Shown here piece after piece: positions 3,956-41,600 of a stretch of DNA of 53,367 nt. The notes below the pieces were generated by a model. It worked only from the letters and a program-made list of their open reading frames with translations, made no database searches and was not told the origin of the DNA. Source of the stretch: Rhizaria sp. SCN 62-66 (lineage: Eukaryota); NCBI GenBank assembly GCA_001724265.1, contig MEDY01000059.1:62001-115367 (forward strand), given 5' to 3'. How positions within the stretch are numbered: the stretch's first letter is position 1; each line of letters starts with the position of its first letter. Made by a program: the position numbers and the translations under genes.

Positions 3956-6900
3956 TTAATCGGTGACAATCGCACTGCAAAGTGTGATCTGTGCGGCGAC
4001 GAGCAGGTGGTCCGACCCGCGCTTCAGGTTGGGCAATCCGATCTCCTCGGCAACCTCTTCCACACTGGGCAGCGGCTTCAGCGACTCCACGCGCACCCAC
4101 GCTGCAGCAGCATCAGAGGCGCTGGCTGCGGCGCGCCACAGCGGATGCACGACGGGCGCGGCCGAGTAGAAGATGTAGTCGAGCGTGCCGGACCAGGGCC
4201 CCGAGGCCGTGAGCTGGGGTTTGTCGAAACGCGCCGCCCAGGGGCTGTGCGCGCGCGCCCACTCGCCGCTCGCGGGCGACAGCGCTGCGGCCTCGGGGCG
4301 CGGCGGCAGCGGGCCGTAGCCGGCTACGCGGGCGCTCACTTGCTGCTGCTGCTCCTGCGGCCTCTGCTGCTGCTGCTCACGGGCGTACCCGGTGTGCGCG
4401 TGTGACGCGTCGACAGCCTCCATGCGCGTCAGAACGCGCGAGATTGCGCTCGCAGCCGAACGTACAGCATCGGTGGCGTTACAGGTGCTTTCGTTGCAGT
4501 CCAGCACAGCGAGGTCGGTGCGCGCTGCAGCAACGGCGGCTGCGGCGGCTGCATTAGCGGCGCGCGCCGCGGCCTCCGCGTCCGCGCGCGGGTTCTGCTG
4601 CGGCTGCATCGGGGTGGCGACGGGGAGCGCGGGATAGCTCTCGAAGGCAGAGCGGTACCGCGGCAGCGCCACAGGCACCGCCGCCGCCGAGCCCGCGGCC
4701 GCGGAGTCGGTGGCCGAGGACGCGAATGCCAGACCCAGCAGCGCGGCGTCGCAGAGGCGCTGCGTGACGGGGGCCGCGTACGCGGTGACGAGCCGGCGCA
4801 CGCGCGCGTCGTTCTCCAGGACCGCACCGCAGGCGGCGAAGACGGCCTCGCGCGCGGCGGCGAGTGCGGCCGCGGCGGCGGCCACGGCCGCGGGGTCGCG
4901 CACGTCGCTGCACCGCACCGCGGCCGCGGCGGCCATCGCGCGCGCCAAAGCCTCACAGCCGTTGCCGCTGCCGTCGGCGGCGGTGGCGTTGAGCGACGCC
5001 GTCCAGAGCACGGCGGCGGCGGAGGCCTCCTGGTGCGCCCACTGGCCTGCGAGCGCCAGCACCGTGCTGAACGGCGACACAGGCACCGCGGCCGCGGGGT
5101 CGACGCCGTTGAACGCGCTCTCGAACGCCGCGACGGGCTCGCTCGCCACAAGGGGCACAGCCGCGGACGCGGTAGCCGCGGCCAGCGGAGCCGACGCTGC
5201 GTTGCTGTAACCAGCAGTGACTGTGGGCAGGTAGTTCAGCAGCAGCGGCCCGGCGGCGGGGCCGAGGCGCAGCAGTGCCAGCAGCCCCGCCAGCGCGTCC
5301 GGCGCGCACAGCGCATGCAACAGCAGCACGGCGCGCGCGGCTTCGGCCGTCACGGGCAGCGCCGCGGGGCCGAAGCACTCGGCGCCGCGCGCAAGGCCCG
5401 CGGGCCGCGGCAGCGTTGCGGCGGCCGACAGCGCCGCGCCCGTCGCGGCGAGCGCGGCGGCTGCGGCGGGCTGGCCGCCAAGCGCGGCGGCGAGCCGGGC
5501 CTCGGCGTGCGCGGCGGCGGCGGCCACGGCGGCGGGCGCGGGCGCGAGCGCCGAGTAGCAGTGGAGCGCGGTTGCGAGCAGCGCCAGCGCGGCCGAGACC
5601 GTCGCCGCCGCCGTCGCGGGCGCGGGCAGCGACATGATGATTGCAGGCGCGGGCCGCGGACACGTGGCGAGACTCAGCGGCGTCGCGATGCGGGCCCACA
5701 TGGCGGGGCCGTCCTGCGGCGCAGTCTCTGTCGCAGTAGCGGCGTCGTCAGCGAGGGCCTCGTTCTCGGTCGCGGACCCGTCGGCAGCAGCATCAGCAGG
5801 AGACTCAGCCGCCGTCGCGTCGGAGGCGCCAGCAGCGGCAGCGGCCTCGACAGCTTTAGCAGCGGCCTTAGCAGCCTTGGCGGCAGCGCGCTCCGCCATC
5901 GCAGCCGCTGCGGCACGTGCGGCCTGAGCCTTGGCCTGCGCGGCGGCCTCGACGGCGGCAAAGGCGGGCAGCGCGGGCGGGATCATGGCGTCCAGCACGC
6001 GCACGAGCCCGTCTAAGGGGGTGCTTACACCGAGGCTGCAGTCCGCGGCCGCGCGCACGTACGCTACGTCAGCCTCGGCAACTGCCGCAGCAGCCGCAGC
6101 CGCAGCAGCTTTGTCGTCTTCATCGTCGTCGTCGTCATCGCCGTCCTCGTCGTTGGCGACGTGCGAGCCCTCAGCCCAGGTCTTGAGCCCCATGAGGTAC
6201 TCCTGCTGAAGCATGGCCACCGCCTCCGAGCACAGGTCCGAGGCGCCCGAGGCACTCGCCGCCGCGGTCGCCGTGATGTACGCCAGCGACGCCAGCGGGC
6301 TCGCCAACGCGGACGCGGGCGACACGGGGAACTGCACCGTCACGGACTTGGTGCTGTCACTTTGCGATTGCGAGGGGTGAGACAGAGCGACAAGCTGGGT
6401 GACGTAGGGCCCGTCCGGCGACGCCAGAGAGCGCTTAAACGCCTCCACAGTCTCCGCATCGCACTGCGTACTGGCGCTGGCGTTGGCTGTGATGGCGGTG
6501 AGTGCGGCGAGCGGCCGCGCTAGCCACTGGGGCGCCGTCTCTGCGCACTGCGCGAAGGACCCCGCGTCGCAGCCGTTGGTGTCTCCGCGTGCGACGGGCC
6601 GCGGCAGCGCGTCGGCCTCGGCCTTGCGGCCGCGCGCGAGCAGCCAGTCGCGGCGCTCGAAGTACTGGGCCACGGCGTACGAGTCCTTGGCCGAGGCGGC
6701 GCCCGCGGCGAGCGGCAGCGGCGGCAGCAGCAGCCGGTGCTTGAGCAGCGAGTAGCCCAGCGTCGTCGGCGTCACGTTGAAGTCGCCGCACGTAAAGTGG
6801 AACGGCAGCAGCGGCACCGCGTCTCCAGCACAGTCAGCACCGATCGACGCAGACGCAGTGCCGTCACCGGCAGGGGCGGCGCTGGCCCAGACGGAACGGG

Positions 6901-7730
6901 AGACTGCGCGGGGCAGCGCGTGCGCAAAGGCGGCCATGGAGGAGAGCAGCGCATGGATCTGGCGCGTCTTGAGCCAGTTGGCCATGTGCCGCCAGTTCAG
7001 GTGCGTGTTCGAGAGCAGGACCACCGGTGCCACTGGAGAGCCTTCACTTTCTGACTGCGACTGCAACTGTGATGGAGGCTGCGACGGCGACAGAGTGCGG
7101 AGGCGGTGCGGGCCCTTGACGCGCAGTGCGGCAAGCAGCGCAACGTTTTCGGACCCCAGCGAGGAGGCCTCGCTGTGCGAGCGTGATACCGTGGCGAGGG
7201 ACTCGTAGAATACGGTTTTGACGGCGATGGGCTCGAACACGTCGGTCTTGTACGCGATGGCGAGACCGTGGATCGGGGCCTCAGGCTTCGACGTAAAGAG
7301 CACGCGGTAGCCAGCCGCGGAGAGCGCGGAGTGCCATGAGTCCTTGGCCGCGGGGTCAACGGTGCCGCAGTCGACCTCTTGCATGCACAGGACGTCGAGG
7401 TCCATCGCAAGAACCTACCAAAAGAGTCACGCCAAGAAGGAAGATATGAGAGAAGACACGACCATACCAACGTATGAAGATTATCCTGTCTCCGAGTAGT
7501 TTATTATTACAGTTTCTCTTCTTGCAACAATGATTTGAATGAGGTATGCGACTGGGGAAACGTACCTCGGTGAGGAGCAGCTTGAGCCGATCCTTGCGCT
7601 TGAGGGCTTTGTCACAAGCGTAAGGGAACATGGTCCGCCGGACCAGGCCTTGCGCGAGAATGTTGTAGGTACCAATTGTAAGCGTACCAAGCGCTTTGGC
7701 CGCGTTGCGCCATTCAGGCAGCGTGCTCAT
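3956..7730 (-). CDS. EEP-superfamily CCR4/nocturnin/Angel (Ngl-like) nuclease/phosphatase; exons 7730-7566 and 7414-3956, ~1207 aa
   Basis: Exon 1 encodes TYNILAQGLVRRTMFPY (Ngl/Angel-like). Exon 2 encodes DVLCMQEVD, GLAIAYK, NTHLNW, GDFN, TLDYIFY and GSDH. The exons join in phase 0 (…LLLTE|VLAMDLDVLC…). No LRR region is visible, so it is not CCR4 proper. Confidence 0.88.
7415..7565 (-). other. Spliceosomal intron (151 nt)
   Basis: GAG|GTACGT donor and pyrimidine-rich …TTGGTAG|GTT acceptor; AT-rich; removal joins two halves of the EEP domain in frame. Confidence 0.9.
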
Positions 7731-23690: not shown

Positions 23691-25155
23691 CTAAAGAGCA
23701 ATGGTATAGTATGGTAGACAGATGGACATTTGTGTGAGTTGTTCTTGTTCGTGATTCACAGCGAGTTAGCCGTCAAGTCGGAGGATTCTTGTGAAGGGAC
23801 AGAGTGCAGTTTCAAGATTAGAGCAGGATACATAATAGCCGATGACCATTCGAGCGTGTGCCGGGCAAAGACAACTAACCTTGATGGGAGTGTTGTGAAC
23901 TGGTAGGGTTCCTCGCCCCAGGTGCACACTTTCTAGTAGTATGAGCCATGCGAACGTGGCTCCGCCATGTCCACTATGCGCTGCTGGTCTAAACGAGTCT
24001 GCTATGAAAGAAGAAAACAAACAAAGGATGTATAATTATCAGAACAAGTAGATAATCACAGAAACATATTCGAGTAGAATCTCCGATCGCAGTTATCGAT
24101 CACACGATCGAGATATTATTGCTCGAGTTTAGCAGCTGACAGTCTGCATCTCGCATCAGTGATCAGGAAATACACGCAACGTAGAACTAAAGTAGAGATT
24201 TTAAGTCAAGATCTTAACAAATCAAGGGGATTTTTATGTATAGTATTATGTAAGCACAAACACGATGCGCGGAAGCACAATTAATATACGTATATTGGAA
24301 ATAGGTAGCTGTATATCCTCGGACATGTCATAGAACCATGCAAGTAACACATCTGCCACGCCAACACTTTATAGGGGTAGGCGGCAGTACATCCAGGACT
24401 GTGTCATGACAAAAGAGTTACCTTTACACTGAATGTACAATTTAAATAATAGGCGTACGATGCTTGCATATCTCGCGCTTTTTTGACGCCTCCATTCGAT
24501 GGTCTCATTACTCTTCACATCGAAGCTTTGCAGGATCAGATCTGGTGATTGCATCGCAGAAATACAAGATTTTACATTATAGCAAGACTATTCGACGAAA
24601 TAAAACATGTTGTTTTCGGGCATGTATTAATATGCGTTCAAACCATCGGAAGTTTCAAGTGAGAGTCACTTGAACAGACTTCTAGACGTCGCATAGACAC
24701 AATTATATGAATAATCATACAAAAATCTTTTAGGCATATTGTAAAGTTACATAGATACTTTGTTAATCCAGAATTATCGTACCGGATGACGTTGTATAGC
24801 AAGAGATACACTCGATTCAGAAATATGTGGTGGAAATTAAATCAATTATTATTTTTGCGAACTGCGAGCCAACGACGAAGGGGCTGGTTTTGATTCGCCA
24901 GAGGGTACAGCGCGTCTCAAACGTGTTTTCAACAAACATGGTTTTATTATTATTTTCAATTATACTATAACCATATCGTACTGCGTTCGTATCCCATCCA
25001 GACGATGGCTTGTGTCGTGGCTGGCTGTAATTCTGGACTCCTTTTGGCCTCTGCCCTCATCTTCCTCCCCTTTGCTGACTTGTCCTTTCGTTTGTGCCTG
25101 CCTGTTTGTCTTAATGCTTGCTTTTCCCCGCGCGTAGGTGTTCAACAGAGACGAG

Positions 25156-28100
25156 ATGCGGATCGCTCGCGCACCTCCTTCCCGAGGAGGAGTCGCGTCA
25201 CGCTCTGCGTCGCCGCTCTTGTTGTGGGCGCTGGCACTGGCCGCTTTCTTGCTGGCCCTAGCAGCGCCCATCGTTGGCGTCAAAGCCAGCGCCACAGCGG
25301 CGATGCGCATTGTTTCCGCCGATGACATTGCGTCCAACCCTATTTTGTACGGTAACATCGAGGCTTCGCGAACGCACGGGCTGCTCGAGCGCATCGACGC
25401 CACGGGCTCCTTCACGTCGGTCCAGCGCGAGCTGCACAACCCCTGGTCGCTGATCAAGGGCGCCACGATGGAGCGCCCAGCCAACTACTCGCTGCTGGCG
25501 ATGACGTCGACGATTGAGGGCCAGCAGCAGAACCTGGCGTTCGTGCAGGACGTGGACCCCACGCTGATCTTCCGCAAGTGCGAGCCCGGGTACTCGCCCT
25601 TCTTCAAGTCCTACGCGTGGGGTGGGTCAAGCAAGTACGTGCTGCCGATGACGCGCGTTAAGGGCCACGACCAGCGTGTGGCCTTTGAGGGCGTGATCAA
25701 GGTCGGCGGGCAGTCGATCCCCGTCGGTATCGACACCGGCAAGGGCATCTCCTGGGTCGTGTCCACGGCCGTCAAGCACAAGGCCACGCGCATGCTCAAG
25801 AAGTTCAACCCCACGCGCGCCGTGGGGTCGACCAAGGCCAAGGTGCTGGGCATGCCGGTGCAGATTCGTCTCAGCGAGGGCAGCCGGCAGCCTGACTCGT
25901 ATAACGACATCGCTGCCGGCCTCCAGCGCGTCGACGCCATGGCCAACTTCCTCCCGCCACCGCCCTCGACGCCCTACAAGAGCCCCAGCGGCGGCGGCGG
26001 CGACAAGACGCCGCTGATTGCGACGGCCAATTCGCCGACGCAGAGCATGCTGTCGTGGGCCGGCATGAGCAAGCGCGCGCGCAAGTTCATCCCCAGCGGC
26101 ATGATGCCGCGTATCACGGGCCGCCTCAAGGCCGACTTCCTGTCCAAGCATAAGTCTGGCCCCAACTGGTTCATGAAGCTGCTCATCTTCGCCTTTAAGG
26201 TCCTCAAGGCCGTGTTCAAGGAGTACGCCGACGGCGGCGCTCTATCCGGCGGCGACGACGCCAAGGATGGCGACGCCGCTGCCGAGGGCGGCGAGGGCCA
26301 GTCCGAGGGCAGTGGCGAGGGCCAGGCCTCTCAGGAGGAGCAGGCGCCCGCGGCGGAGGAGGGCTTCTTTACCCAGCTCTCTTCCCTCATCACGACCCGC
26401 ACTCAGTCTCAGGCGGCAACCAAGACCTCCGCCAGCGGTACCGCGAGCGCGACGTCGACGGCCGCCGCGGCTGCGCGCGTGCGCGCGTCGCTGGCGTCAA
26501 TGTTCGCGGCCGCCGAGGCCTCGGACGCGGCCTCGGAGACGGACGCGGCGGCCGTGCACGCGCTGTCCGCGCTGTTGGGTGCCGATGAACTCGCCGGCGA
26601 CCTGGCCTTCGTGCGCCTGCTGGCCCAGAACGACTGGGTCACCGCTGACTCGGTCAAGCAGTTTCTCGCGCTTAACGGCCAGCACAAGGCCGCTACCGCC
26701 GCCGCTGCCGCTGCTGCTGCTTCTGCTGCTGCGGCCGAGGGCGTGTACTCGTTCATTTCGACCGCCGACGAGGCGCGCGCCGCTGTGGCCGCCCAGACCG
26801 CCGCGGCGTCATCGCTTATCGACACCTCCTCTGGCGCCGGCGCGGACTCCGCGGCCGCGGCTGCGGCGTTGCTGTCGACGACGGTGCTGGTGCCGTCGCG
26901 CGCGTGGGCGGCCATGTCCGACGATGAGCTCACGGCGCTGCTCGCGCTTGGCAGTGAGACCACGATCGAGGAGGACGAATCGCTCGCCGCGGAGCTCGAG
27001 GAGGCCGAGGCCGCCGAGGCCGTCGAGACCGAGATCGCGTCGCTGCTCGAGGCCGGCGCCACCGCGGGCGTGGGGCTTAGCGCCGCGCGCGCGACCGAGC
27101 GCGTCACCGCGCTGCGCAAGTACCCGGCCCCGCCGCCGCTGCCGTTCACCTCGCAGCAGCTTGAGGTCTCGCTTGCGCCGCCCGTGCACGTGCTGCAGGC
27201 GCTCGTGGACCGCGTGACGGCCGCGGCCGCGGCCGCCGCGCACGACCCCGTTGCGCGCGACCGCCTGCTGCACGCCGCCGCGGCGTCGCTTGCCCGCAAG
27301 CACGGCCGCCACGTCCCCGCGGTGACTGCGGAGCACCTGCGCGCGCTGGCGGCGTCGGCGCAGTCGGGCCGCGTGCGCACGCTCGTGGACGACTTCTTCG
27401 CACACGCGCAGCACCAGCTGGCGCAGGCGCGCGACCACCGCGCGCGCCTGGCTGTGCGCGCGCGTCTCGCGCGGCGCTTCGCCGACGCCTACGGCGTGGG
27501 CTCGCTGGACGACTACATGGCGGGCCGGCTGCAGGCTGACGAGCTGGGGCTGCTGCGCAAGCCCGACGCGGCGCGCGAGGACCACATCGACTGGGAGACC
27601 TGTCCCTCCACTGATAGCGACGGCGCCGACCACAGCGGCGGCGCCAGCACGGCTTCGACAACCTCACCCAGTGCCGCGGGCGCTGAGGAGGGCGGTGGCA
27701 TGATGACCGCGTCGTTCGCGGCGCCCGCCGTGGCGGCGTTGTCCTCTGCGGCGTTCCCGCGCTGGGTGTCACCCTTCGCGGCCAAGTGCCCGCACCTCAA
27801 TGCCACGGAGCGCTACAACACGCGTCTGTCCGAGGCCGTGTACTGGGCCGAGCCGACAGAGCCGATGCTGCGCCGCGCCGTATATGGGCTTGACCACCTG
27901 CGCATGCCCGATGACATTAACGCCGCCATGCGCGCCGCGGGCGCCAAGGCGGACCGCTTCGCCGCGCTCGTCGCCAGCGCCGACTTCGCGGCCGCGCTGG
28001 CCAACCGCGCCGAGGACGAGCAGGGGCTCGAGACGGACCCGCGCAGCTACCGCGTCATTAACCGCGGCGGCTCCGTCCGCAAGCCCAAGTCCGCGGCCGG

Positions 28101-31100
28101 CGGCAGCAACAGCAAGATCAAGCGGTCCGTGAACCCCGGCGACATCCGTGCGCGCATGCACTCGCTGGTCGAGCAGCAGGCCGAGACCGCCGCGGCCGCC
28201 GGTTCCGCGACCGCCGCCACGGCTGAGGCCGCCACGGCTGAGGCCGCCGCGGCTGCGGGCGCCGCCGCGTCCGCGCTGTACCAGGGCCTCACGCGTGAGC
28301 AGGCGTTGGACCTGCTGTGGGAGCAGTGGGCGGCCGACGCCGCGACGCTGCCCGCGGGGGAGCAGGAGAAGCTCTTCATCGAGCTGGGCTCCTCGCTCGC
28401 GCGCGCCACGGCCGCGGCCGTCAAGAGCGACGACACCAGCGCCATCACTGGCAACATCTACGGCGACGAGGACTACGACACGATCTCGGCGGTTGAGCGC
28501 GAGCGCCGCGCCGCCGTCCGCGAGTCCCTCGCGCGCGCCTACGCGGCGGCCTCCGGCGTGCCGCTGCGCGCGGCACGCCTCGCGATGGCCGCCGCGTCGG
28601 CCGCGCAGAGCGACAACACCGCCACCTCTGGCGCCGCGCTCGACGAGGCCATCTCGGCCGCCGCGGCCGCGCTCAACGCCGACGGCAAGGCTTCGTCCGC
28701 CAGTGCGACCGGCGCGGCTGCCGCGGCTGTCCTGGCCCGCGCCGCCGCCGAGTCTGCTGCGTCGGCTGCGGCTGCGGAGCGCGCGGTGATGAGCGGCGCG
28801 GGCGTGCTGGACTGGGAGCGCGTGTACGGCCCCGAGCTGCTGGCCACGATGATCGGCGCCGACGAGCTCGCGCAGCTCCGCGCGGACGCGCTCGCCACGG
28901 CCTCCGCGCTCACACCTGATGAGAGCGACAGCGCCGACGATAGCAGTGACGACAGCACCGTATTCGCCGAGCTCGGCGCCGGCGTGAGCGCGGGCAAGAA
29001 GAAGGGCGGCAAGAAGGCGGCGAAGGTGACGATCGAGGACATGGGCGCCGTGTCGTACGAGGGTGAGTGGGACGTGCTGGGCACGGGCTACGCCAAGCAC
29101 AAGTTCGCCGTCGTCGTCAAGGTCAATGAAGCGTACCCCACGCTCACCTCGCTCTCCGGGCTTCTCGGGCTGGGTTACAGCGGCGACATGACCGTCACAC
29201 GCGGCCTCACGCAGCCCTTCTTATCCAACGCTTACACGCTGGAGCGGCACCCGGGTACGGGCGCGCCGCCCTGCATGGGCATGCCGTGCGTGATGGACCC
29301 GGCGGCGATGTGCTGCGAGGAGCAGCGGCCGGCGATCTTCTCCTTCTACGTGCACCGCTTCTTCCAGGGCGCGTGCTTCAGCATGCACCAGCCGGATATG
29401 GGATGGGCGGGCGGCCCGATGATGTGGGCGCCCGCTGTGCACTCGTACTCGAGCTGGATGGTGCGCGTCGACGACGTGCTCATCGGCGGCGTCGCGCTCG
29501 GCACGGGCCCCATGCATGCCGCGGTGCACACCAACTACGAGAACGTGGCTGCGCCCATGGACTCGGGCGCCTTCTGGTCCATGAACTTTGAGGCGCGCGT
29601 GCCCGTGGACCCCTCGTGCAAGGACGTGCAGAAGCTGCCCGACGTGACCTTCCTCGTCAACGGTCACCGCCTCACCATGACGTGGGTCGACTACGTGCGC
29701 GTGCTCGACGGCGGCGACGGCTCGCTCGTCTGCCACTCGCGCTTCGTTTCGGGCCCCTGGGGCGCGTTCCCCGCGCCCACCTGGATCTTCGGCTACCCCT
29801 TCCTGGCTAAGTTCTTCACAGTCTTCAACGCTGTGTCGGGGCAGATTGGCTTCGCGCCTGCCGTGCACATCAAGTACGAGGTCCAGGGCTGCAAGCCTGG
29901 CGCGGGCGGCGCGCTCGACACCGTCATGTCCGGCTGCATCAAGAACGGCCCCGGCGGCGCGCCCGGCGCGGCGCCCGGCAACGGTGGTCGCGGCGGCGGT
30001 CGTGGCGGCGGCGGTGGCGGCGCAGCGATCCCGCGTCTGCGCGCGGGCGAGCGCGTGATGCCCGACGGACGCGTGCGTGACGGTAAGGGCAAGGTCATTG
30101 GCCGCATCGACTACAGCACTGGCGCCGTGCGCGGCCGCGACGGGCGCGTGGTGCGGCCCCCGATCGAGCTCAAGAGCCAGGGCAGCACTCAGGGTGCCGT
30201 CGTCAAGCCGCAGACGGAGAAGAAGGACGCCGCGCAGCCGACGCCGCCGCCGCAGACGCCGCTACCCGAGCAGCTGCAGCCGGAGCTGGCGGAGCCGGTG
30301 CCCGAGACTGCGGCCGAGGCCGAGGCGCGCGCCGCCGAGGAGGCGCAGGCCGTGACAGACTTCTCCGACGCCGACGCCGACAACGCGGGCAGCGAGGGCA
30401 ACTCGACGGCGGGCGACAGCACCGAGTCGCTGGGCGCGCGCGTGCGGTCGGGGTTGTCGCAGCTGCACGGGACGGACAAGGGCCACATAGTGAGCGAGCG
30501 CGAGCCGTGGGAGGATGCATGGCGGCGCGTGCTGCGCAAGGTGGGCCAGCTCGAGGTCGAGCTTGACTACTACAACCAGGTTCTCGTCGCGCGCCTGCGC
30601 CAGGAGGGCAAGGAGAGTGTGGCGAGCCTGTTCGAGCGGCAGCTGCAGCGGCTGGCCGAGACGCTGCTGGTCGTCAAGACGTGGGCCGAGGGCCACGCGC
30701 GGACGCCCGCGCACACGGCGCTGCTGCGGCGCGCCGAGCAGCAGGGCCGCGAGGACGAGCGCGTGTGCATGACGACAATGAACCCGGCCTACGGGCGCAC
30801 GTGCCGCGACCTGCTGCGCCTCGCGCGGCGCCTGCAGACGGTCACGGCGGCCGTGGACGTGCAGATGGGCCGCATCCCCGTGTACCCCGACCAGGACAAG
30901 CAGGCCGGGCTTGACGGCGCCGCGGGCCGCGACGCGCGCTCGCCTGCGTGGGCGCGCCAGCGCGTTGAGGAGGGCCGCAAGCTCGCCTGGGCCGTCGTGT
31001 CCGACGCCGAAGCCGAGGCCGCCGCGGTGCGCCGCGCCAACGACATTCTGCAGCGCGGCGGCTACGTCAACACGCTCGCACCCGCGTCCGAGGCGGACCA

Positions 31101-31695
31101 AATGTCCGCTGAGGAGAGCGGGGCCGCCAAAGACGCGGGCCCCAGCAGTAGTGGCAGCAAGGTGAACGAGCGCGAGTGGTACTCGAAGCTGACGGGCGAC
31201 CAGAAGGCCGACAGCTCCGTTATCGAGGGCATGTTCAAACCGCGCCAAGTGCCTGAGTTCATCTCAAAGGCCGGGCTCAACGCGGCCGCGGGCACGACCC
31301 CTACGCAGAGCATCAAGGAGCTCATGCGGCCGCGGTCCTCGCGCGTGGCTTATCTGGAGCGCCGCGGCATCTTCGGGCTCGGCAACGACATGACGGGCGC
31401 CGAGAGCACTCGTGCCTACGGACGCATATACAACGCTGACCTGGTGGCAGCGCAGGGCGCCTCGCTGCTAGAAGTTGGCGCCGGCGCGCGCCAGCGCGTG
31501 CGCGGGGACCTTGCGCAGCGCCGCGCGCGCGGGCCGCCGGGCGCGGACTGGCCCGAGGCCGAGGCAGTCATGGATGAGGCCCCGGTGGACTGGAACCGCG
31601 TGAGCGATGCATGGCAGCAGAGCCAGAACCCGTTCCACCGGACGATGAACAAGTGGCGCAACCGGGTGCACAGCGAGTGGATCCACACGCCGTGA
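25156..31695 (+). CDS. Secreted pepsin-family (A1) aspartic protease-like protein with an atypical active site and very large insertions, 2179 aa
   Basis: N-terminal hydrophobic signal (LLLWALALAAFLLALAA). N-lobe elements FEGVIKVGGQSIPVGIDTGKGISWV, KFNP, SGLLGLGY and IFSFYV. C-lobe elements WMVRVDDVLIGG, VDPSCKDVQKLPDVTFLVNG, WIFGYPFLAKFFTVFNAVSGQIGFA. Start placed at ATG 25156, after an acceptor-like TAG at 25137. Confidence 0.85.
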   Translation: MRIARAPPSRGGVASRSASPLLLWALALAAFLLALAAPIVGVKASATAAMRIVSADDIASNPILYGNIEASRTHGLLERIDATGSFTSVQRELHNPWSLIKGATMERPANYSLLAMTSTIEGQQQNLAFVQDVDPTLIFRKCEPGYSPFFKSYAWGGSSKYVLPMTRVKGHDQRVAFEGVIKVGGQSIPVGIDTGKGISWVVSTAVKHKATRMLKKFNPTRAVGSTKAKVLGMPVQIRLSEGSRQPDSYNDIAAGLQRVDAMANFLPPPPSTPYKSPSGGGGDKTPLIATANSPTQSMLSWAGMSKRARKFIPSGMMPRITGRLKADFLSKHKSGPNWFMKLLIFAFKVLKAVFKEYADGGALSGGDDAKDGDAAAEGGEGQSEGSGEGQASQEEQAPAAEEGFFTQLSSLITTRTQSQAATKTSASGTASATSTAAAAARVRASLASMFAAAEASDAASETDAAAVHALSALLGADELAGDLAFVRLLAQNDWVTADSVKQFLALNGQHKAATAAAAAAAASAAAAEGVYSFISTADEARAAVAAQTAAASSLIDTSSGAGADSAAAAAALLSTTVLVPSRAWAAMSDDELTALLALGSETTIEEDESLAAELEEAEAAEAVETEIASLLEAGATAGVGLSAARATERVTALRKYPAPPPLPFTSQQLEVSLAPPVHVLQALVDRVTAAAAAAAHDPVARDRLLHAAAASLARKHGRHVPAVTAEHLRALAASAQSGRVRTLVDDFFAHAQHQLAQARDHRARLAVRARLARRFADAYGVGSLDDYMAGRLQADELGLLRKPDAAREDHIDWETCPSTDSDGADHSGGASTASTTSPSAAGAEEGGGMMTASFAAPAVAALSSAAFPRWVSPFAAKCPHLNATERYNTRLSEAVYWAEPTEPMLRRAVYGLDHLRMPDDINAAMRAAGAKADRFAALVASADFAAALANRAEDEQGLETDPRSYRVINRGGSVRKPKSAAGGSNSKIKRSVNPGDIRARMHSLVEQQAETAAAAGSATAATAEAATAEAAAAAGAAASALYQGLTREQALDLLWEQWAADAATLPAGEQEKLFIELGSSLARATAAAVKSDDTSAITGNIYGDEDYDTISAVERERRAAVRESLARAYAAASGVPLRAARLAMAAASAAQSDNTATSGAALDEAISAAAAALNADGKASSASATGAAAAAVLARAAAESAASAAAAERAVMSGAGVLDWERVYGPELLATMIGADELAQLRADALATASALTPDESDSADDSSDDSTVFAELGAGVSAGKKKGGKKAAKVTIEDMGAVSYEGEWDVLGTGYAKHKFAVVVKVNEAYPTLTSLSGLLGLGYSGDMTVTRGLTQPFLSNAYTLERHPGTGAPPCMGMPCVMDPAAMCCEEQRPAIFSFYVHRFFQGACFSMHQPDMGWAGGPMMWAPAVHSYSSWMVRVDDVLIGGVALGTGPMHAAVHTNYENVAAPMDSGAFWSMNFEARVPVDPSCKDVQKLPDVTFLVNGHRLTMTWVDYVRVLDGGDGSLVCHSRFVSGPWGAFPAPTWIFGYPFLAKFFTVFNAVSGQIGFAPAVHIKYEVQGCKPGAGGALDTVMSGCIKNGPGGAPGAAPGNGGRGGGRGGGGGGAAIPRLRAGERVMPDGRVRDGKGKVIGRIDYSTGAVRGRDGRVVRPPIELKSQGSTQGAVVKPQTEKKDAAQPTPPPQTPLPEQLQPELAEPVPETAAEAEARAAEEAQAVTDFSDADADNAGSEGNSTAGDSTESLGARVRSGLSQLHGTDKGHIVSEREPWEDAWRRVLRKVGQLEVELDYYNQVLVARLRQEGKESVASLFERQLQRLAETLLVVKTWAEGHARTPAHTALLRRAEQQGREDERVCMTTMNPAYGRTCRDLLRLARRLQTVTAAVDVQMGRIPVYPDQDKQAGLDGAAGRDARSPAWARQRVEEGRKLAWAVVSDAEAEAAAVRRANDILQRGGYVNTLAPASEADQMSAEESGAAKDAGPSSSGSKVNEREWYSKLTGDQKADSSVIEGMFKPRQVPEFISKAGLNAAAGTTPTQSIKELMRPRSSRVAYLERRGIFGLGNDMTGAESTRAYGRIYNADLVAAQGASLLEVGAGARQRVRGDLAQRRARGPPGADWPEAEAVMDEAPVDWNRVSDAWQQSQNPFHRTMNKWRNRVHSEWIHTP

Positions 31696-32610
31696 GGCGC
31701 ATGAACACCGCCGCGCATGCGGAGCATGAATGTTGGTTGCGTCGATTAAGGGCTCGATGACGCACATGCGGTTGGATGGTGGGATAACGAAGTATATCGT
31801 GTATAATGTATATGATGGCCACGCACTTCTGTGTGAGAATGCGGCCTTATTAAGGCGGTCCTCCGTGCGAGCAGTTTACATTGTACATGTAAGTCAAAAT
31901 CATACAAAACCTCATTTAAGCAAAGCGCTTCAGTATCATTTTTCATGTATTTTTAAACTTCTAATGGAACTAAATTTTCCTATATAGTCCAACACGTCAA
32001 ATCACAAGGGTTTTTGAAAAAATATCACTTAGAGCTCGTAATTAAGCAGTGCTTGTGGTGAAAGAACGAACTCTAATGATGTTGATTCCTTCGCTGTGGT
32101 ACGGTTCGGGAAAAATCAGCACACAAAAAAAGACGCTATTTTTCGGTCGGCAAGCGAGTCGGAGAGAGGCGCGAGCCTGTTTCAGAACGTGTGTTTGTGC
32201 ATTGTGCGATACCGAGATAAGGCTATTTCATATTTTTTCGTATAAAGTAGTACATGCCATAGCTGTGGTAACTGCACTTTGGTCGTTTAGGCGGCAGTGG
32301 AGGCAGTGGACGTCCCCCTCCGTTCCAATTCGAGCGACACAGATTTCGCTCAAACAGCCTTCTTGGCGCGCGCCCTGGTCCTGCTTGCCATGCCGGCGAG
32401 GTGTGCTGCGTGCAAGACACTTGTACCAACATTATGTGGGTGACAAAGTCCTCCACGTTTAATTTCACAGTTTCCTGTCGTGCCTGTGCATCGCACAGGC
32501 CCCCGAGCGTGCTGTCCGCGTGCCCTCGCGCCTCCTCCCCTCTCTCACCGTGTTCTGCTTTCATTTCCCCAATTTTGTTTCTTTTGCGACAGGAACGGAG
32601 GTCTGGCCAC

Positions 32611-35600
32611 ATGCGTCATCCTTCACTCCTTAGCGTACTCGCGTACGCTTGTCTGTTCATCATTGGCTTGTTGGCTATCACGACCCAAGCTCAATGCTCT
32701 GTCGACACCTCAGGCATGGCAGTCACATACGACACTACAGTGACCAGTGTGACCAACTCTAACAACTATTACTACTTGGGTAGTGCTTCATCGTCTTCCT
32801 TCGGCATTACACTCACCAATACCACGTCCTCGGAAGGTGTTGCTGTCTGGCTCCGTCGCCGCGCGCGTATCTCCGCCGGCTTCACCGCGACCTTCACCTA
32901 CTCAACTGGGACCACCCCCAACGGCCTCGTGTTTGTCATGCAGTCCCTCGGCTCCACCGCCCGCGGTGGCTCCGGCATGAACCTGGGCTACTCTTTTGCG
33001 CGCTCCATCGCCATCGAGCTCGATATGTTCAAGGACGCAACGGGCGAGACCAACGGCAACCACGTCGAGGTGCACTCGTGCTGGGCCAGCTCCAACTCGG
33101 CCACCACCGACTGCCGCATCGGCACTTCCACCACGCTGGGCTCTCTTATCACGCTCGCCAGCGAGACGCCGCGCACTATCACCGTCAAGTACTCGCCGGT
33201 GACGGGCACGATCACGGCCTCGACGGTGCAGTCGGGCGCCACCACGACGCTCGCCTCCGCCACAATTTCGTCCACCAACTTTGACCTGCTCTTCCCCGAC
33301 GGCAACGCCTATGTGGGCTTTACGTCCTCCACTTCGGACTCCTCCACGCTTGCGCCCGCGCTCGTCCAGGTCTCGGACTTCACGATGACCACGGTGGGCG
33401 TGTCGCCCGCGCTGAGCCGCGACTCGGCGGCCGTGTACGCGCTCACGGCCGAGGCCAACAACGCCGTCACTACGTCCACGCAGCGCACCTTCTACCTCTA
33501 CGACTTCTGCGGCACGCGCATCAATGGCGCGTCCACGGAAGTTGCCACGACCGTGGTCACCGCCAACGACAACGCGTTTGGCACCACGGGCAGCGTCTCC
33601 GTCGCCAGCAACGACGATGGCTCCTACACCATTTCGTACTACCAGTCCACTGTGGGCACCTACGTATTTTCCGTGTATGTCAACAAAACCATTTCGGGCA
33701 CCAGCACCTTTTCGCGCAACTACACTTTGACGGTGACTTCGGCCGCGCCCTCGGAGACGCTTTCTGAAGTCGTCTCCGGCCTGCCTACCAACAACGTCTT
33801 CACTGCTGGCACCAGTGTCAACATCACCGTACAGCTCTATGACCGCTTCAGGAACAAGTACGTCGGCGCTGCGCAATCTGTCAAGGCGCGCTTCGGCTGC
33901 TGCGACGACTTCAGCTACAGCAGCGTCAACACGGCGACGGGCCTGTACACGTTCACTGCGCTGACCACCACGGCCGCGCTGTCCTCGTCGCTCGAGTTCA
34001 AGGTCGGCGGCGTTAACATCAAGGGCTCGCCCTACGCTATCACCGTCAACCCGGGCCCCGTCAAGGGCGCGACGTCGTTCCTCGGTGGCAGCGGGCTGAC
34101 GCAGACCACGGTCGGCGTAACCTCGTACATCCGTCTGCAGCTGCAGGACTCGTACGGCAACTCGATCACCTCACCGCTGGATACGCCCCCCGAGCTGTAC
34201 CTGTACTCCTCCGTCAACGGCACTGCCACTCCGATCGCGAACGACGCGGACACGCCTGGTCCCACGTGGCGTGACACCTACTACGAGTACACCTACTCGA
34301 CCAAGGTCGCCAAGATCTACCTCATCAAGTGCCTCGTCAATGGCGAGGTATGCCGCGATTCTGCCTCGCTGCAGACCACTGTGCTGGCCGGCCAGCTGGA
34401 CGTCACTAAGACGGGCATCACGCTGCCGACCTCCGGCCTCGCCGCCGGCTCGCAGCAGACCGTGGGCATCGTTCCCACGGACCTCTACGGCAACGCGCGC
34501 GGCCGCGAGAACGAGTCCAACAAGACCTTCGACGTCACCGTGACCGCGGCTGGCGGCGTCGCGACCAGTGTGACGTGCAACTCGCAGGGCACGGATGTCA
34601 AGACGACCGAGTCGGTGCGCTCCATGCGGTGCTTTTTCCACACGTCGAACCAGTACCGGCTGACGTTCACGCCCCTCGTGGCCACGCTCAGCGTCGGCAC
34701 GAGCTACTCCGTCGTCGTCACGCTTGGCTCGCAGTCCACGGCCGCCTCTGTGCTTAACATCAAGCCCGGCACCGCATCGGCGGCGACGTCCACCTTCGCC
34801 GTGACCGACTCCGGCGTCGCGGGCCAGCCCGTCACGGCCACCATTACGGCCTTCGACGCTGAGGGCAACGCCGCAGCTCCCCCTGAGTCGACCATTAACC
34901 TCATCCTCAACTCGGCGGGTGTTATCATCACCCCCACGCGCGGTACCGCCATCGTCACTGCCAACAAGTGGACCCAGGATGTCACGTTCTACACCAAGAG
35001 CACCTACACCGTGACTGCCACCCTTGGCGGCCTTATTGTCGGCACCGCCGCTTCAGTGCCTATCGCCGCCGGCGCTCTCAATCTGCCGACGTCGACGATG
35101 TTCGGCGACGCGTCCGGCGTTATCAACACTGACATCACGCTCTCCTTCACCCCGCTCGATCTGTACGGTAACTCCGTCTCTGACGGCGTGTCGGGCCTTG
35201 CGTGCTCTGTCTTCGTTGACGCCTCGACTTCCCTGCCGTGCGCGTTCGGCACTATCGTCGCTGACAAGCCGATCCCGCTCACATTTACTACGCCTTCGAC
35301 CGCGGGCGTGAACTACCAGATCAAAGTCAGCAGTGGCACGGACGACTGGTACGGCTTCCTCACTGGCAAGTCCTACGACGACGGTTCGCAGTACGGCGTC
35401 ATCCTTGCTTCGGGCTCTACGAACCCCGTGTCGGTGCTTAACCTTATCGCCGGCACAACCGTCAACTACACGCTGCAGAACCGCGACATCAACGGCGCCG
35501 TCATCCCCGACGCCGTGTCGTGGTCCGCCGTCATCTACGACAGCGCCGGCGCTCTCGCGCCCACGGCCGTGACGGTGACCATTCCCACGACGCCGGCCGC

Positions 35601-38600
35601 GTCAGTGACGATGACTGTGAAGCCCCGCCTCGCGGTCACCGGCTTCAAGGTGCGCATCTACGCCAACGCCGCCGAGACGAAGCAGAGCACTGACGGCATC
35701 TCGCTTAACATCGCTGTCGGCACCATGAGCTACCTCTACTCGACTGCCACACTCGACGCCTCCTCGGGCTCCGCGGGCGTCTACACCGCCGGCGCGAATG
35801 TGTCGTACTTGGTCGTGCCCTACGACAGCGAGGGCAACCGCGTCGTCACTTCGAGCACCATCACTGTCGCCTACGTCAACTCGGTGGATGATACGTCCGT
35901 GACTGTTTCGTCCGAGTGGGATTCGACCAACAACATCTACAAGGGCTCCTTCACCCCCACTGTTGCGGGCCGCTTCACCCTCGTTGTCCAGGACCCGAAC
36001 CACCAGACGCTGCTGTCTGAGCCCGTCTTCACTGTGGCGCCCGCCGCTCTGTCTGACAAGTCGACCCTTGCGACCTTGGCGGTGTGCGCCATCGGCGAGT
36101 CGTGCAGCGTTGTCTTTACGCCTCGTGACAAGTACAACAACCCCCTCACCGCGCTGACCACGTCCGACTTTGACCTTTACACGCCCTCGGCTTCTGCCTC
36201 TCCTTCGAGCAAGACCTCGTTCACGCTCGAGACGGCCTCCGAAAACACATTTTACGTCTCCTTCACGCCCACTTACCTCGATGCCTCGTACACCAACGCC
36301 ATCCAGGCCAAGGTCGGCGCAGTGGTCATGGCGAGCGTGTCGGTTACCGTGACGTTCGCGGCCAACCTCGACGCGACGCGCACGACGGCCACGGCGATCG
36401 CGAACCTCTCCGCGCCCGGTAACGCCGTCATCACGATCAACGCCAAGGACACGTATGGCAACATTTGGTCCGCGATCCCGGCCGACTACGAGTTCACGCT
36501 CGTGGACCTCACCACCAACGTCAGCACCGTGTTGGGCTCGTCGACCTACGTCGCCGACACCACTCTCGGCACGATGACTGTGACTTATTTCGTCAAGACC
36601 TCGTCCACGTCCTACTCCTGGGTCGTGCGCGCCAAGGACGTCACGCTCTCCATTGCGTCGACCTTTGCCGTGCGTCCCGGCGCGCCGCTGGCGACCCGCA
36701 CTGTGCAGGGCTCGCCCGCGTCGCTTACGGTTCAGGCCAATGATGTCTTTTCCTTCGACATCACGGCCTACGACCAGTACGGCAATCGGCTCGACCGCGC
36801 CGACACGTCGGCGACCTTCACCATCGGCATCTTCGAGGGCCGCTTTGCGTGTACGGGCACCAGCGTACTCATGCCCTCCGAGCTGGCTACTTCTGCTTGG
36901 TCGGCGACCGGCAACTTCACCGGGACCATCGGCAGCTCCAAGATCACGTACACGGCTGACGGCACCTACTCTGTCAAGATCTCCACCACCCGCGCCAACT
37001 CGTTTAACGCCGCCGGCTCGCGCCGCCGCTACTACTACTACATCATGCTTAACGGCGTGCTCATCCGCAGTTGCGACCAGCTCTCGGACACGGTCCAGGT
37101 CACCCCCGGTGTCATCTCCGGCGAGCACTCGCTCCTCACGGGCGTCGACCTCACCGCCATCGAGGCCGGCTCTAGCGTCGCGCTCACCGTCGAGTACGCA
37201 GACAAGTACAAGAACCAGATCCGGTACACCTCGGACGAAGTACTGCCCACCGTGTCGCTGTCCACCGCCGGCCTCTTTGGCTGCTCAGGTACTGAGCTGA
37301 CCGGTGCGACCATCACGGCGGGCAAGGACAACGCGCAGCTGGTCTTCGCGCCCACCAAGTCTGGCACTATGTACTCAGGTATCGTTGTTGCTGGCACCAG
37401 CGTTAAGTACAGCAACTCGAACTGCATTCCTTTTATCGTGCACCACTCGTACCCCTATACTTGGACTGTGAGCCCTGCCCCCCTCGCCTCCGGCACGCTG
37501 ACCGAGGTCCCTATCGTTGCCCTGGATCGCTTCAACAACACCGTTAACCTCACCCAGGCCACGACGTCGTCCGTCAACTCGTTCTCCTTCACCATCGAGC
37601 TTACGCTGACGTCCTCGCCCGACGCCGCGATCACCACCAATGCCGTCGTGTACTCGTACTCGGCCGCGTCGCTCACGCTCGTCTCCGGCGAGTCCAACCT
37701 CAAGGTCCCCATCGCGGTGCTCTGGCCCGGCACCTACGCCGCCACCGTCACTATCGTCGAGTCGACTGTGCGCGAGCGGTCCTACAGCTCCACCACGGGC
37801 TCGCTCACTGTTGATGTCGGCGTCTGCGCGCAGATTAATGCCGAGCTGCCCTACCGCTGCCCCGAGGGCACTTGCAAGGTCGACGCCTCCAAGTGCAATG
37901 GTTACAGTGAAGAGCTCGTCTTCCGCTGCCTCACCAACGCGACGAACAACGCGTATACTTACGTGTCGGATATCGCGAGCTGCCTCTGCCCCACGGACCA
38001 GAAGCTGTGCACGTTCCACGGCCTGTCGTACTGCACGGCCTCGACCACCGCGTGCCCCACGACGACCTCGCCCGCCGTCGCGGCCGCCTCGCAGCGCCAC
38101 TGCAACTTTGGCGACTCGCTGTGCCCGGACCGCCGGACGTGCGTGTCGGACCCGGCCAACTGCCCCGACTCGACCGCCTGCGCCTCCGGCACCGTGCCGT
38201 GCCCCAACGGCTCGTGTGCCAAGTCGGGCGACGAGTGTCCGTCGAGCATCTCGTGCCCCACAGACGCGCCCGTGCTGTGCGCCGACGACTCGTGTGCCGC
38301 CTCGGCCACCACGTGCCCGTCTCTGCGCCCCTGCCTGCCTCCGCGCGAGGTGCGCTGCGCCGACGGCTCGTGCGTCAGCAAGGTTGCCGACTGCCCCTCG
38401 GCCGTCGTGTGTCCCGCCAGCACTGTGCTCTGCGCCTCGGGCTTCTGCGCCGCCTCCGTCGCCGACTGCCCCGCCCCGTTCTCCTGCGCCGCCGGCTTCG
38501 TGCGCTGCTCCGACGGCTCGTGCAAGGCGGACGTGAGCTTCTGCGCCACCAAGCCCTCGTGCCCGTCGGGCCAGGTGCTCTGCGCTGACGGCACCTCGTG

Positions 38601-41600
38601 CGCCACGTCGGCCACGCTGTGCAACAGCAAGCCCTTCTGCCCCACGTCCCGCCCCGTGCTCTGCCCCTCGGGCGCGTGCGCGACCGCGGAGAGCCTGTGC
38701 GGCACTGCGCAGACGTGCCCCAACGACGCGCCCGTGCGCTGCGCCGACAACTCGTGCGCGGCCTCTGCGTCGTCGTGCGCCACAACGGCCTCGCAGTGCC
38801 CTGCGCAGGCCCCCGTGCGCTGCCCCGACGGGTCGTGCCACAAGACGGCCAACGCGTGCGCGTCGATGATCCAGTGCCCCGTGCACCGCCCGCTCAAGTG
38901 CGCCGACTCGCGCTGCGTGGCGACCCCGCTGGACTGCACCGCGCCCTCGACGCTCGCCTGCCCCACTGGCCACGTCCGCTGCCACTCGGGCATGTGCGCT
39001 CCCTTCCTGCTCGCCTGCCCCACTGTGGTGACGTGCGCTGACGACGAGGTCCGCTGCCCCGACGGCACGTGCCGCGCGACGTGCGACGAGCGCGCCGTGG
39101 ATCCACCCGCGTGCCCCGCGGGCCAGGTGCAGTGCCCGCTCGCTGACGCCGGCGTGCACTGCGCCGCCAAGCTCGCCGACTGCCCCACCAGCTTCGTGTG
39201 CCCCAAGACTGCGCCCGTGCGCTGCATCGACATGACGTGCGCGTCCTCGGTCGACGAGTGCGAGCCCGTGGACACGAACCTCATCCCGGCCACGCGCATG
39301 CCCTGCGCTTCCGGTGCCTGGGCCTCGTCCCTGTCCACCTGCGGCACCCCCATCACGTGCCCCACCGCTCAGCCCGTCAAGTGCTGGGACGAGTCGTGCC
39401 GCCGCGTGGCCGCCGACTGCCCGCCTATGCGCCGCTGCGACGTCGACGCGCCCTACCTCTGCGCCGACGGCTCGTGCCAGCTCAACCTCTGGTCCTGTGC
39501 CACGGCCCGCTGCACTGACTCCGAGCGCCCCATCCGCTGCCCCGCATTCTCCTCCAACCGCGGCTGCGTGGCTTCGCTGAGCGACTGCCTCGACGTCGAG
39601 GACCTCAACGCCAACGTCCTCGTCCAATGCCCCTCCGGCCAGCGCTGCTGGGACGGGTCCTGCGCCGCCGAGCTGCGTCTGTGCCCGGCCCGCACGTGCC
39701 CGCGCCACATGCCCGTGCTCTGCTCCACCGGTGCCTGCGCCGAGAGCGCCGCCAAGTGCCCCAACACCAACGGCTGCCCTTGGGACACGCCCTACTTCTG
39801 CCCCGGCACCGCATCCTGCGTCACCAGCGCCGCCAAGTGCTCCTCACGCTCGTGCAGCGACGGCCTCACGCTCTGCGGCGACGGCACGTGCCGCACGCGC
39901 GACGCGTGCCTCGGCGTGACGGCCTTCGGCTGCACGTCCACCACGCCCATCGTCTGCCACGACAAGAAGTGCGCCGCCAATACCACCACGGGCGTCTTTG
40001 ACTGCACTGGTACTAGCGACTCGTACAACGCGTGCCCCGCCTCGCGTCCGTTCCGCTGCGATGGCGGCATGTGCGCCGTGTCGTCGACGCGCTGCCCCGT
40101 CACCTTCGCCTCCGACTCGACGGGCTCGTGCGGCACCGACAGCACCGGCCGCGCCATGCCCGTGCGCTGCGACGACGGCTCCTGCGCCTACTCACTCGCG
40201 CAGTGTCCCATCATCGCGCCTTGCGCCGATGGCTACCTGCGCTGCCCCGACAACACGTGCAAGGCGCTGCCGTGCGACCCCACGCGCGCGTCGTGCCGCG
40301 ACGACGCCACGTCTGCTTTCAACACCCAGCCCTTCCACGGCGCGCTGTGCGCCGACGTGCAGACGTGCCCCACTGCGCGCCCGTACCGCTGCCAAGACGG
40401 CCGCTGCGCCGTCTCTTCGAGCGAGTGCGTCGACGAGTACCCCATCGTGCTCCAGTCGTGCTGCGCCGACGATCTGCCCTACTCGCGCCCCACGACCAGC
40501 AACCCCTACGGCCGCTGCGGCTCCACCGCCGTCGCTGGCGGCTGCACCAACCCCAAGCGCAACGCCGACTCCGTCTCCGGCTGCCCCGAGCTCTACACGC
40601 GCTGCGCCTCCGGTATCTGCATTGCGTCCAACAGCAGCCTCACCTGCGCCAACTACAACACCACGTCCGTCTCGTCGTGCTCCGCCTCTGCGCCGTACAC
40701 TTGCCCTGACGGCTCCTGCGCCACCTCGGCCGCGGACTGCTTGTACAACTCCAACGGCTGCCTCGCTTCTTTCCCCGTTCTCTGCTCTGACGGCTCGTGT
40801 CAGGCTTCTGCTAGCTCGTGCTCCGCGACCACCGCCTGCGCCAATGCTGACCATGTGCGTTGCAGCAACGGTCTCTGCGCCGAGTCGCTCTCCAAGTGCC
40901 TCATGCCCGAGACCAACTGCGCTATGGACACGCCCATCCGCTGCGCCAACGGCGATTGCATGGCCTTTGCCGCGCTCGCCGGTGCCTCTCAGCAATCCCT
41001 GCGCTGCCCGCCCACGCTCAAGTGCGACGCGCGTGCGCCGTACCTCTGCGCAGACGGCACCTGCGTCGCCAGCGAGTCGTTGTGCCGCCCCGTCATGCCC
41101 TGCGCGTCGGGCGTGCGCTGCCCCTTCACGGGCGCCTGCGTCAGCAGTATCTCCTCCTGCCCCGCCACGCTCTCCCAGTGCCCGGCCGCCGCGCCCTTCC
41201 TGTGCCCCAACGGCGCGTGTAAGACCTCGTCGAGCGACTGCGCGCCCGCGCTGTCGACTGTGCGCGCCGCGTCGTGCCCGACCTCGCGCCCCAACCGCTG
41301 CGCCGACGGCTCGTGCGCCAGCACTCCCGCGCAGTGCGTGCAGGTGACCGTGCGCGCGTTTGCCTCTGCCGACTTCGACGTCACCGCAAGTGCAGTTCCT
41401 TCTGGCGTCTGCGCGAACTCTGGCTTCATCTGCCCCAACGGTCTCTGCGTCGCGTCGTCAGCCGAGTGCGCCCTCGTCGCCGCCTGCCCGCTCCACGCCA
41501 CGCGCTGCGCCGACGGCTCGTGCTCCACGACGACGTGCCCTGACAACACCTCGAGCTGCCCCTCCGGCTCCGTCCGCTGCGAGGACGGCACCTGCCGCGC

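Follow-up and report, generated by a model that had tools for sequence, protein, structure and literature searches.

Can a pepsin-fold protein whose second catalytic aspartate has become a histidine still cleave peptides, or does its cleft serve another purpose? The question is raised by a gene in a 53,367-nucleotide stretch of Rhizaria sp. SCN 62-66 (GenBank assembly GCA_001724265.1, contig MEDY01000059.1, positions 62,001 to 115,367 of the forward strand), hereafter the window. The gene lies on the + strand in a stop-free frame at 25138–31695, with its first Met at 25156; residue numbers count from the start of the frame at 25138, not from the Met, and we take pepsin residue numbers (such as 75, 186, 217, and 224) to be the standard ones. 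The first-pass annotation of this DNA offered two options for the encoded protein: unusual chemistry, mirroring the histo-aspartic protease (HAP) of Plasmodium, or a non-catalytic binding protein. On the comparisons described here, the evidence leans toward the latter, and by its conservation the histidine signature marks an old, conserved subfamily rather than the single-gene oddity first supposed; the signature also includes a lysine beside the remaining aspartate, a second histidine, loss of a conserved tyrosine, and a flap-tip insertion.

Register of the active site

The window protein is, judged by sequence, a homologue of peptidase family A1. The Pfam Asp model (PF00026) matches at 48.9 bits against a curated cut-off of 19.9 (overall expectation value, E, 8e-13) in two stretches that cover model positions 6–68 and 86–315, and both psi-loop motifs (hydrophobic-hydrophobic-Gly) are present, as LLGLG at residues 1342–1346 and WIFG at 1549–1552. 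The N-lobe DTG is where it had been claimed to be, encoded by GAC ACC GGC at 25732–25740 within GIDTGKGISWV; in the resulting D-T-G-K (25732–25743, residues 199–202), the sequence and the family alignment place a retained Asp32 and a Lys in place of Ser35. The C-lobe histidine was also read correctly (CAC at 29527–29529, within AAVHTNYE) and lies in the same stop-free frame. H-T-N-Y (29527–29538) occupies the positions of Asp215-Thr216-Gly217-Thr218 according to PDB and profile alignments, spacing, and contigs.

This histidine, His1464, aligns with Asp215 in all four PDB alignments shown (cathepsin E, cod pepsin, and two cathepsin D sequences), in which AVHTNYENVAAP is set opposite A-[IV/IA]-DTGTS-x-I-x-x-P, and a profile–profile alignment gives the identical register. 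A D-S-G eleven residues past His1464 (Asp1475; 29560–29568) had been overlooked. It was considered as the true catalytic motif and rejected on spacing: Trp190 lies 24 residues from His1464, within the 23–28 seen in 113 of 129 ordinary rows, and 35 residues from the D-S-G, a spacing found in two of the 129. The distance from His1464 to the following Pro is nine residues, the value shared by 136 of the 137 ordinary rows, and the D-S-G, a non-catalytic look-alike, is also unconserved in the family. No other Asp stands at the second catalytic site, where the PDB alignments and the spacing put His1464.

The CAC codon is matched exactly by a contig from an independent study, a comparison made with contigs and not raw reads: this contig of run X3 (study P2, distinct from the possible source study) spans 28601–31444 without a single difference or gap. 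Another X3 contig spans 24811–26015, including the DTGK region, just as exactly, and two X4 contigs include the His codon, each with fewer than 31 letters on one side.

The D-[TS]-G expected in each lobe of an active A1 protease is present in the N-lobe (DTG at 25732) and reads HTN in the C-lobe (29527); on this evidence the window protein fails the two-Asp test of an active A1 protease and, like A1 non-peptidase homologues, has a catalytic Asp replaced. The hydroxyls of Ser35 and Thr218 are both gone, with Lys and Tyr instead. The initial description of the rest of the C-lobe as well preserved holds for the fold but not for the cleft, which has also lost Tyr189, Gly217, and Thr218.

A subfamily with a common cleft signature

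A phmmer search of 1.84 billion cluster representatives with the C-terminal piece of the domain gave 473 matches at E up to 0.001, the best 150 of which were listed. Among the matches listed, five relatives are set apart, at 21–44% identity: P0002 (44% identical, a fragment), P0003 (a fragment), P0006 (a single Logan protein), P0012, and P0026. Signature counts compare these and the window protein, six family members in all, with 151 other rows (the 145 remaining matches, two proteins from a profile search, and four paralogues from the same genome). Family rows were initially chosen by motifs, and the grouping was re-tested with 11 motif columns removed.

His is found at position 215 in five of the six family members and in none of the 142 other rows with a residue there (135 have Asp). 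Of the shared features sought, homologues with the exact HTN were not found (the relatives read HSV, HTG, HNA, and HTS), but four of the five relatives do carry the His. Lys occupies position 35 in all four members with an N-lobe (0/95 other rows), and Tyr189, which is Tyr in 91 of 137 others, is replaced by Ser or Thr in 6/6. A second His, five residues ahead of Trp190 and thus at about position 186, occurs in five of six members vs. 3/135 others, the sixth having Asp; both His186 and His215 are present in four of six. In the window protein it is His1435, in a P-x-x-H-x-x-x-S-W loop (29431–29457) that the family alignment places near pepsin 186, with Ser at Tyr189 followed by Trp190. Gly217 is kept in only one of the five His members (127/142 other rows); positions 217 and 218 vary among these members (N/V/G/A/S and Y/Y/E/A/V), and Thr218 has given way to a residue other than Ser or Thr in 5/5. 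P0026 has Gly215 instead of His and retains Lys35.

Two cysteines are also family-specific. Cys1413 (29374–29376) is shared by 5/6 members, and Cys is outside the ten commonest residues at this position in 136 other rows. Cys1585 (29890–29892), directly past the domain end in the family alignment, has a counterpart in four of the five members that reach the domain end and in none of 66 others. Because the two co-occur and are both missing from P0006, a new disulfide, Cys1413–Cys1585, is probable.

In an IQ-TREE analysis without the motif columns (51 of 148 rows, 170 columns), the six proteins fall on one branch (98/94), the window protein is sister to P0002 (100/98), and P0026 stands beside P0003 (98/81); a FastTree analysis of 139 rows with motifs included supports the family branch at 0.933. 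Branches are long, and the root is placed at the midpoint. The nested position of P0026, with its Gly215, suggests that His215 can be lost. HAP is described as a recent paralogue confined to P. falciparum (PMC13637054; PMC6411711), and the six proteins form their own clade, in agreement with the proposal of an independent Asp-to-His change in the lobe opposite that of HAP.

Signal sequences are present in all four full-length members. A relative about 87% identical over 29638–29872 (32 differences; the His codon is not reached) is represented by an X5 contig. Of its 27 listed changes, 22 affect the third base of a codon, and 19 of the 25 codons changed still encode the same amino acid, suggesting that the pepsin fold is under selection. 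An apparent stop in this relative proved to be two compensating gaps and disappeared on realignment. In the genome of the window gene, no second family copy was found with P0026 or PF00026 queries (lower bounds), and four other A1 loci have an ordinary DTG in the C-lobe; three of these were seen to carry both motifs. Two ordinary A1 paralogues (G000:C59 2–625 and 10696–11775) lie on the window's own contig, approximately 80–90 kb from the gene.

Family size is poorly gauged, since two profile searches recovered only P0006 of the family, with two ordinary A1 proteins, and missed P0012 and P0026. A word-indexed search with the whole protein scored 0 of 7,996 candidates (1,201–3,824 residues), a metagenome contig scan gave three weak loci (31–48% over short stretches), and in the ESM Atlas P0012 falls with generic pepsin clusters. 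A mostly open-access literature search without supplements or MEROPS turned up no account of a pepsin subfamily with Asp32/His215 or DTGK; supplementary protease tables of genome papers could list such proteins as inactive homologues. In the available text of a paper comparing rhizarian genomes, an expansion of aspartic proteases is all that is mentioned (PMC11069148).

Other variation was observed among these sequences. In the loop past the GLG motif, P0006 and P0012 have a strongly basic insert (Lys/Arg counts of 21 and 23 in 55–61 residues) and the window protein has a Cys-rich one, making this a second variable surface of the family. The tail of P0026 (residues 604–626) has a weak UBA match (18.4 bits, below the 22.4 cut-off), which is odd beside a signal sequence. 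Among the other A1 proteins matched, P0023 and P0123 have His at position 32, and P0013, P0048, P0112, and P0118 belong to a separate five-member A1 clade (100/100) with varied catalytic substitutions.

Function of the altered cleft

We consider the window protein and its relatives to be, more likely than not, conserved non-proteolytic pepsin-fold binding proteins with a rebuilt cleft, secreted or luminal. The two pieces of the chain would come together as a single pepsin domain, from whose flap tip the insert would hang. With Asp215 replaced by His, and Tyr189, Gly217, Thr218, and apparently Tyr75 also replaced, the cleft would no longer activate water, and Asp32 is probably engaged by its neighbour Lys35, a pairing that may be likened to the propeptide Lys that blocks pepsinogen. 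Since Asp32, Lys35, His186, and His215 are nevertheless conserved, the groove appears to be retained as a putative binding site, possibly for a peptide or an anionic ligand, and the two histidines could render binding sensitive to pH as the protein moves along the secretory path. The flap insert and the tail, both variable, may act as spacers or as a display for other partners. Signal sequences and the co-occurring Cys pair indicate an oxidising compartment, and the normal A1 loci elsewhere in the genome suggest that proteolysis is already covered. Of the two pepsin aspartates, Asp215 carries the charge and Asp32 is neutral, their carboxyls being stabilised by Ser35 and Thr218 (PMC8004986). 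HAP, which retains Asp215, is active, and four structures lacking the Asp of the C-lobe are inactive; the authors regard this as strong evidence for a requirement for Asp215 (PMC11313796, section 2.3.2).

Comparison with known proteins points the same way, A1 non-peptidase homologues being the most likely working model for the window protein. Xylanase inhibitor and basic 7S globulin, as well as EDGP, are likewise secreted proteins of pepsin fold in which Asp215 is replaced, and these are inactive; they differ in being plant proteins with known partners, and no His215/Lys35/His186 signature is reported for them in the available text (PMC11313796). The Pfam TAXi models gave no match to the window protein. 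Cathepsin D/E and pepsin (family A1A) are its best sequence matches (cathepsin E, E 4.7e-14) and have in common with it the psi-loop Gly, Trp39, Trp190, and the C-lobe Cys pair; unlike them, it lacks a second Asp, has Ser35, Tyr189, Gly217, and apparently Tyr75 replaced, and carries a flap-tip insert and a long tail. The insect protein Bla g 2 keeps both Asp. With Per a 2 and Lma-p54, it is grouped among aspartic proteases that are secreted but inactive and are suspected to have a role in binding (PMC9541408); these differ from the window protein in their substitutions and gave only weak PDB matches (E ~1e-4).

HAP (P. falciparum plasmepsin III; PDB 3FNS, 3QVC) is alike in combining a pepsin fold with one Asp and one His at the catalytic positions (PMC11313796), but has His32/Asp215 (FHTASS, LDSATS) and keeps Ser35, as against Asp32/His215 and Lys35. 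With His and Asp on opposite lobes, the window protein is, on sequence grounds, not HAP. HAP was the top PDB match of P0012 (45.5 bits vs. 44.5 for gastricsin), with the His site misaligned, and was not among the 52 PDB matches of the window C-piece, in which plasmepsins ranked below cathepsins and pepsins; the trees included no named plasmepsin. HAP lacks the flap Tyr (PMC4987639). The window protein has Leu245 opposite Tyr75 in two alignments, in a flap register that the insert makes uncertain.

Several points weigh against the binding-protein reading. His is kept at a catalytic position in five of six proteins that are only 21–44% identical, and dead enzymes often let their catalytic residues drift. 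Asp32-Thr-Gly-Trp39 is kept in 4/4 members, and three relatives carry a Phe near the flap that is a possible substitute for Tyr75, again in uncertain register. Only six members are known, two of them fragments. The flap change is no proof of inactivity, because HAP is active without the flap Tyr (PMC4987639). Finally, as His at 215 is reported for none of the four inactive structures in the available part of PMC11313796, those examples do not test an Asp215-to-His swap.

That the subfamily is instead catalytically active, with chemistry new to the pepsin fold, seems to us unlikely, whether as a mirror-image Asp32/His215 protease or as an Asp32/His215/His186 zinc hydrolase. The first of these forms, itself rather doubtful, would have Lys35 keep Asp32 ionised as the general base and a protonated His215 stabilise the intermediate, the roles of the lobes being swapped relative to HAP. 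Lys35 (4/4) and His215 (5/6) are both family-specific, which favours it; Lys35 persisting in P0026 without His215 speaks against it. HAP His-to-Ala mutants are said to retain some activity (our literature search did not find this), and that would account for the member with Gly215. The cleft of pepsin has pseudo-symmetry, and in plasmepsins either of the two Asp can be the protonated one (PMC8004986); HAP itself works as an Asp/His enzyme without a flap Tyr (PMC11313796; PMC4987639). Against this, structural comparison identifies Asp215 as the indispensable aspartate (PMC11313796), positions 217 and 218 vary freely, and no hydroxyl occurs at the mirror position of HAP Ser35 in 5/5 His members.

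A zinc site is a still less probable alternative, in which Asp32, His215, and His186 (in the space vacated by Tyr189) would bind a metal, forming either a metallo-hydrolase with metal-bound water or a metal bridge to a ligand, with Lys35 steadying an anion. Apo-HAP reportedly binds Zn through its His/Asp pair. In the subfamily the two His are family-specific (5/6 each), the Asp at 186 of the sixth member could also be a ligand, and Tyr189 is Ser or Thr in 6/6; but P0026 is without His215, a third invariant ligand is lacking, and the Lys beside Asp32 would compete with the metal. Very improbable is a functionless or decaying paralogue, in which His is incidental to a drifting protein: the very large low-complexity insert, the long branches, and an expression weakly shown by contigs of one poly(A) library would fit, but the frame of 2,179 residues is intact, changes in the X5 relative are mostly synonymous, and the cleft signature is shared by proteins 21–44% identical, which largely refutes this reading. 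An artefact (an erroneous base in the His codon, two mis-joined genes, or the D-S-G at 1475 as the true motif) has next to no standing, despite that nearby D-S-G and the lack of a single listed contig spanning the whole gene, and is refuted by the exact contig match from an independent study, the His in four relatives, the spacing, and the complementary pieces (Pfam 6–68 and 86–315), both of which match the full-length relatives P0012 and P0026.

Gene layout, neighborhood, and significance

From Met to stop, the open reading frame (25156–31695) encodes 2,179 residues. Hydropathy indicates the hydrophobic core of a probable signal peptide or anchor at residues 27–41 (25216–25260) as the sole membrane-like stretch, with no later membrane helix. 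The first piece of the pepsin domain (25633–25884) comprises the N-lobe strands, the Asp32 loop, Trp39, and the first flap strand (Pfam Asp positions 6–68, E 0.0057; hidden Markov model row 178–249; alignment). The second (29035–29862) comprises the second flap strand, the GLG psi-loop, and the C-lobe (Pfam Asp positions 86–315, E 6e-11; with the PDB cathepsin E match and the 44% identity to P0002 given above). The C-terminal tail of about 600 residues (29893–31692) consists of a Gly/Pro/acidic linker and then a helical-looking region, and gave no Pfam family over cut-off and no usable ESM Atlas match.

Between the two pieces lies a flap-tip insert of about 1,050 residues (25885–29034; 25% Ala, 48% low complexity), with the first flap strand (QIRL) before it and the second (EDMGAVSYEGEW) after it. 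No Pfam family was matched in 25858–29001 at E up to 1, and no Hint domain; no GT..AG joint was among the 15 of 82 joints listed for contigs on the gene, and on these grounds an intron or an intein was rejected as unsupported. The insert DNA is covered by X3 contigs and by three X5 poly(A)-library contigs, of eight such X5 contigs listed on the gene; these are a weak hint of expression, as such a library may contain DNA. Compared with the tails of the relatives, the insert and tail have no convincing similarity (best E 0.047). At the same flap tip the three full-length relatives are longer by about 10 residues, and immediately ahead of this point P0002 has Ala-rich sequence unlike pepsin, which suggests that the insert is an overgrown family feature and not a gene fusion. 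It is an example of a pepsin flap tolerating an insert of about 1,050 residues. Elsewhere in the window, an endonuclease/exonuclease/phosphatase protein (3959–7414, − strand; Pfam match 5–262) appears to have its domain split by a very long Ala-rich insert, its closing motifs seemingly placed at the far end; a similar insert there lowers the weight of the pepsin insert's size, which may be a genome habit.

Directly downstream of the pepsin-fold gene, a 3,769-residue frame (32272–43581, + strand) has a legume-lectin-like domain, Ig/filamin repeats (GEX2 N-terminal Ig-like, E 1e-16), an extended region of Cys-rich repeats, and a membrane helix at the C terminus, and is a candidate giant adhesin or surface receptor. 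The gene's host, a GC-rich eukaryote (assembly 34.9 Mb), occurs in bioreactor and wastewater runs. Its ubiquitin genes at three loci (L008, L011, and L012; G000:C3, C168, and C182) start M-S-M-Q-I-F, and L008 has three tandem single-copy ubiquitin genes that end G-G-H-P-Q-stop. The extra Ser recalls the rhizarian polyubiquitin insertion; no polyubiquitin monomer junction was found among the host ubiquitin genes examined. Locus L026 (1501–5945; G000:C706), perhaps of the same organism as the GC-rich contigs, holds a divergent 18S rRNA gene that is AT-rich and interrupted by four group I introns, and the stretch before the first intron resembles, by eye, a His-Cys box homing endonuclease.

The subfamily is real, conserved, and apparently undescribed. 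HAP and a handful of inactive homologues are the basis for the view that pepsins can do without Asp32 but not without Asp215 (PMC11313796), and the subfamily provides a natural mirror case to test which catalytic residue pepsins need. The compact relatives P0006, P0012, and P0026 would be easier to express, and P0026, without the His, is a control. If the subfamily is active, the Asp32/Asp215 asymmetry would be overturned, or metal catalysis added to the pepsin fold; if inactive, it would be an old clade of pseudoproteases whose cleft is rebuilt yet conserved and whose ligand is worth finding.

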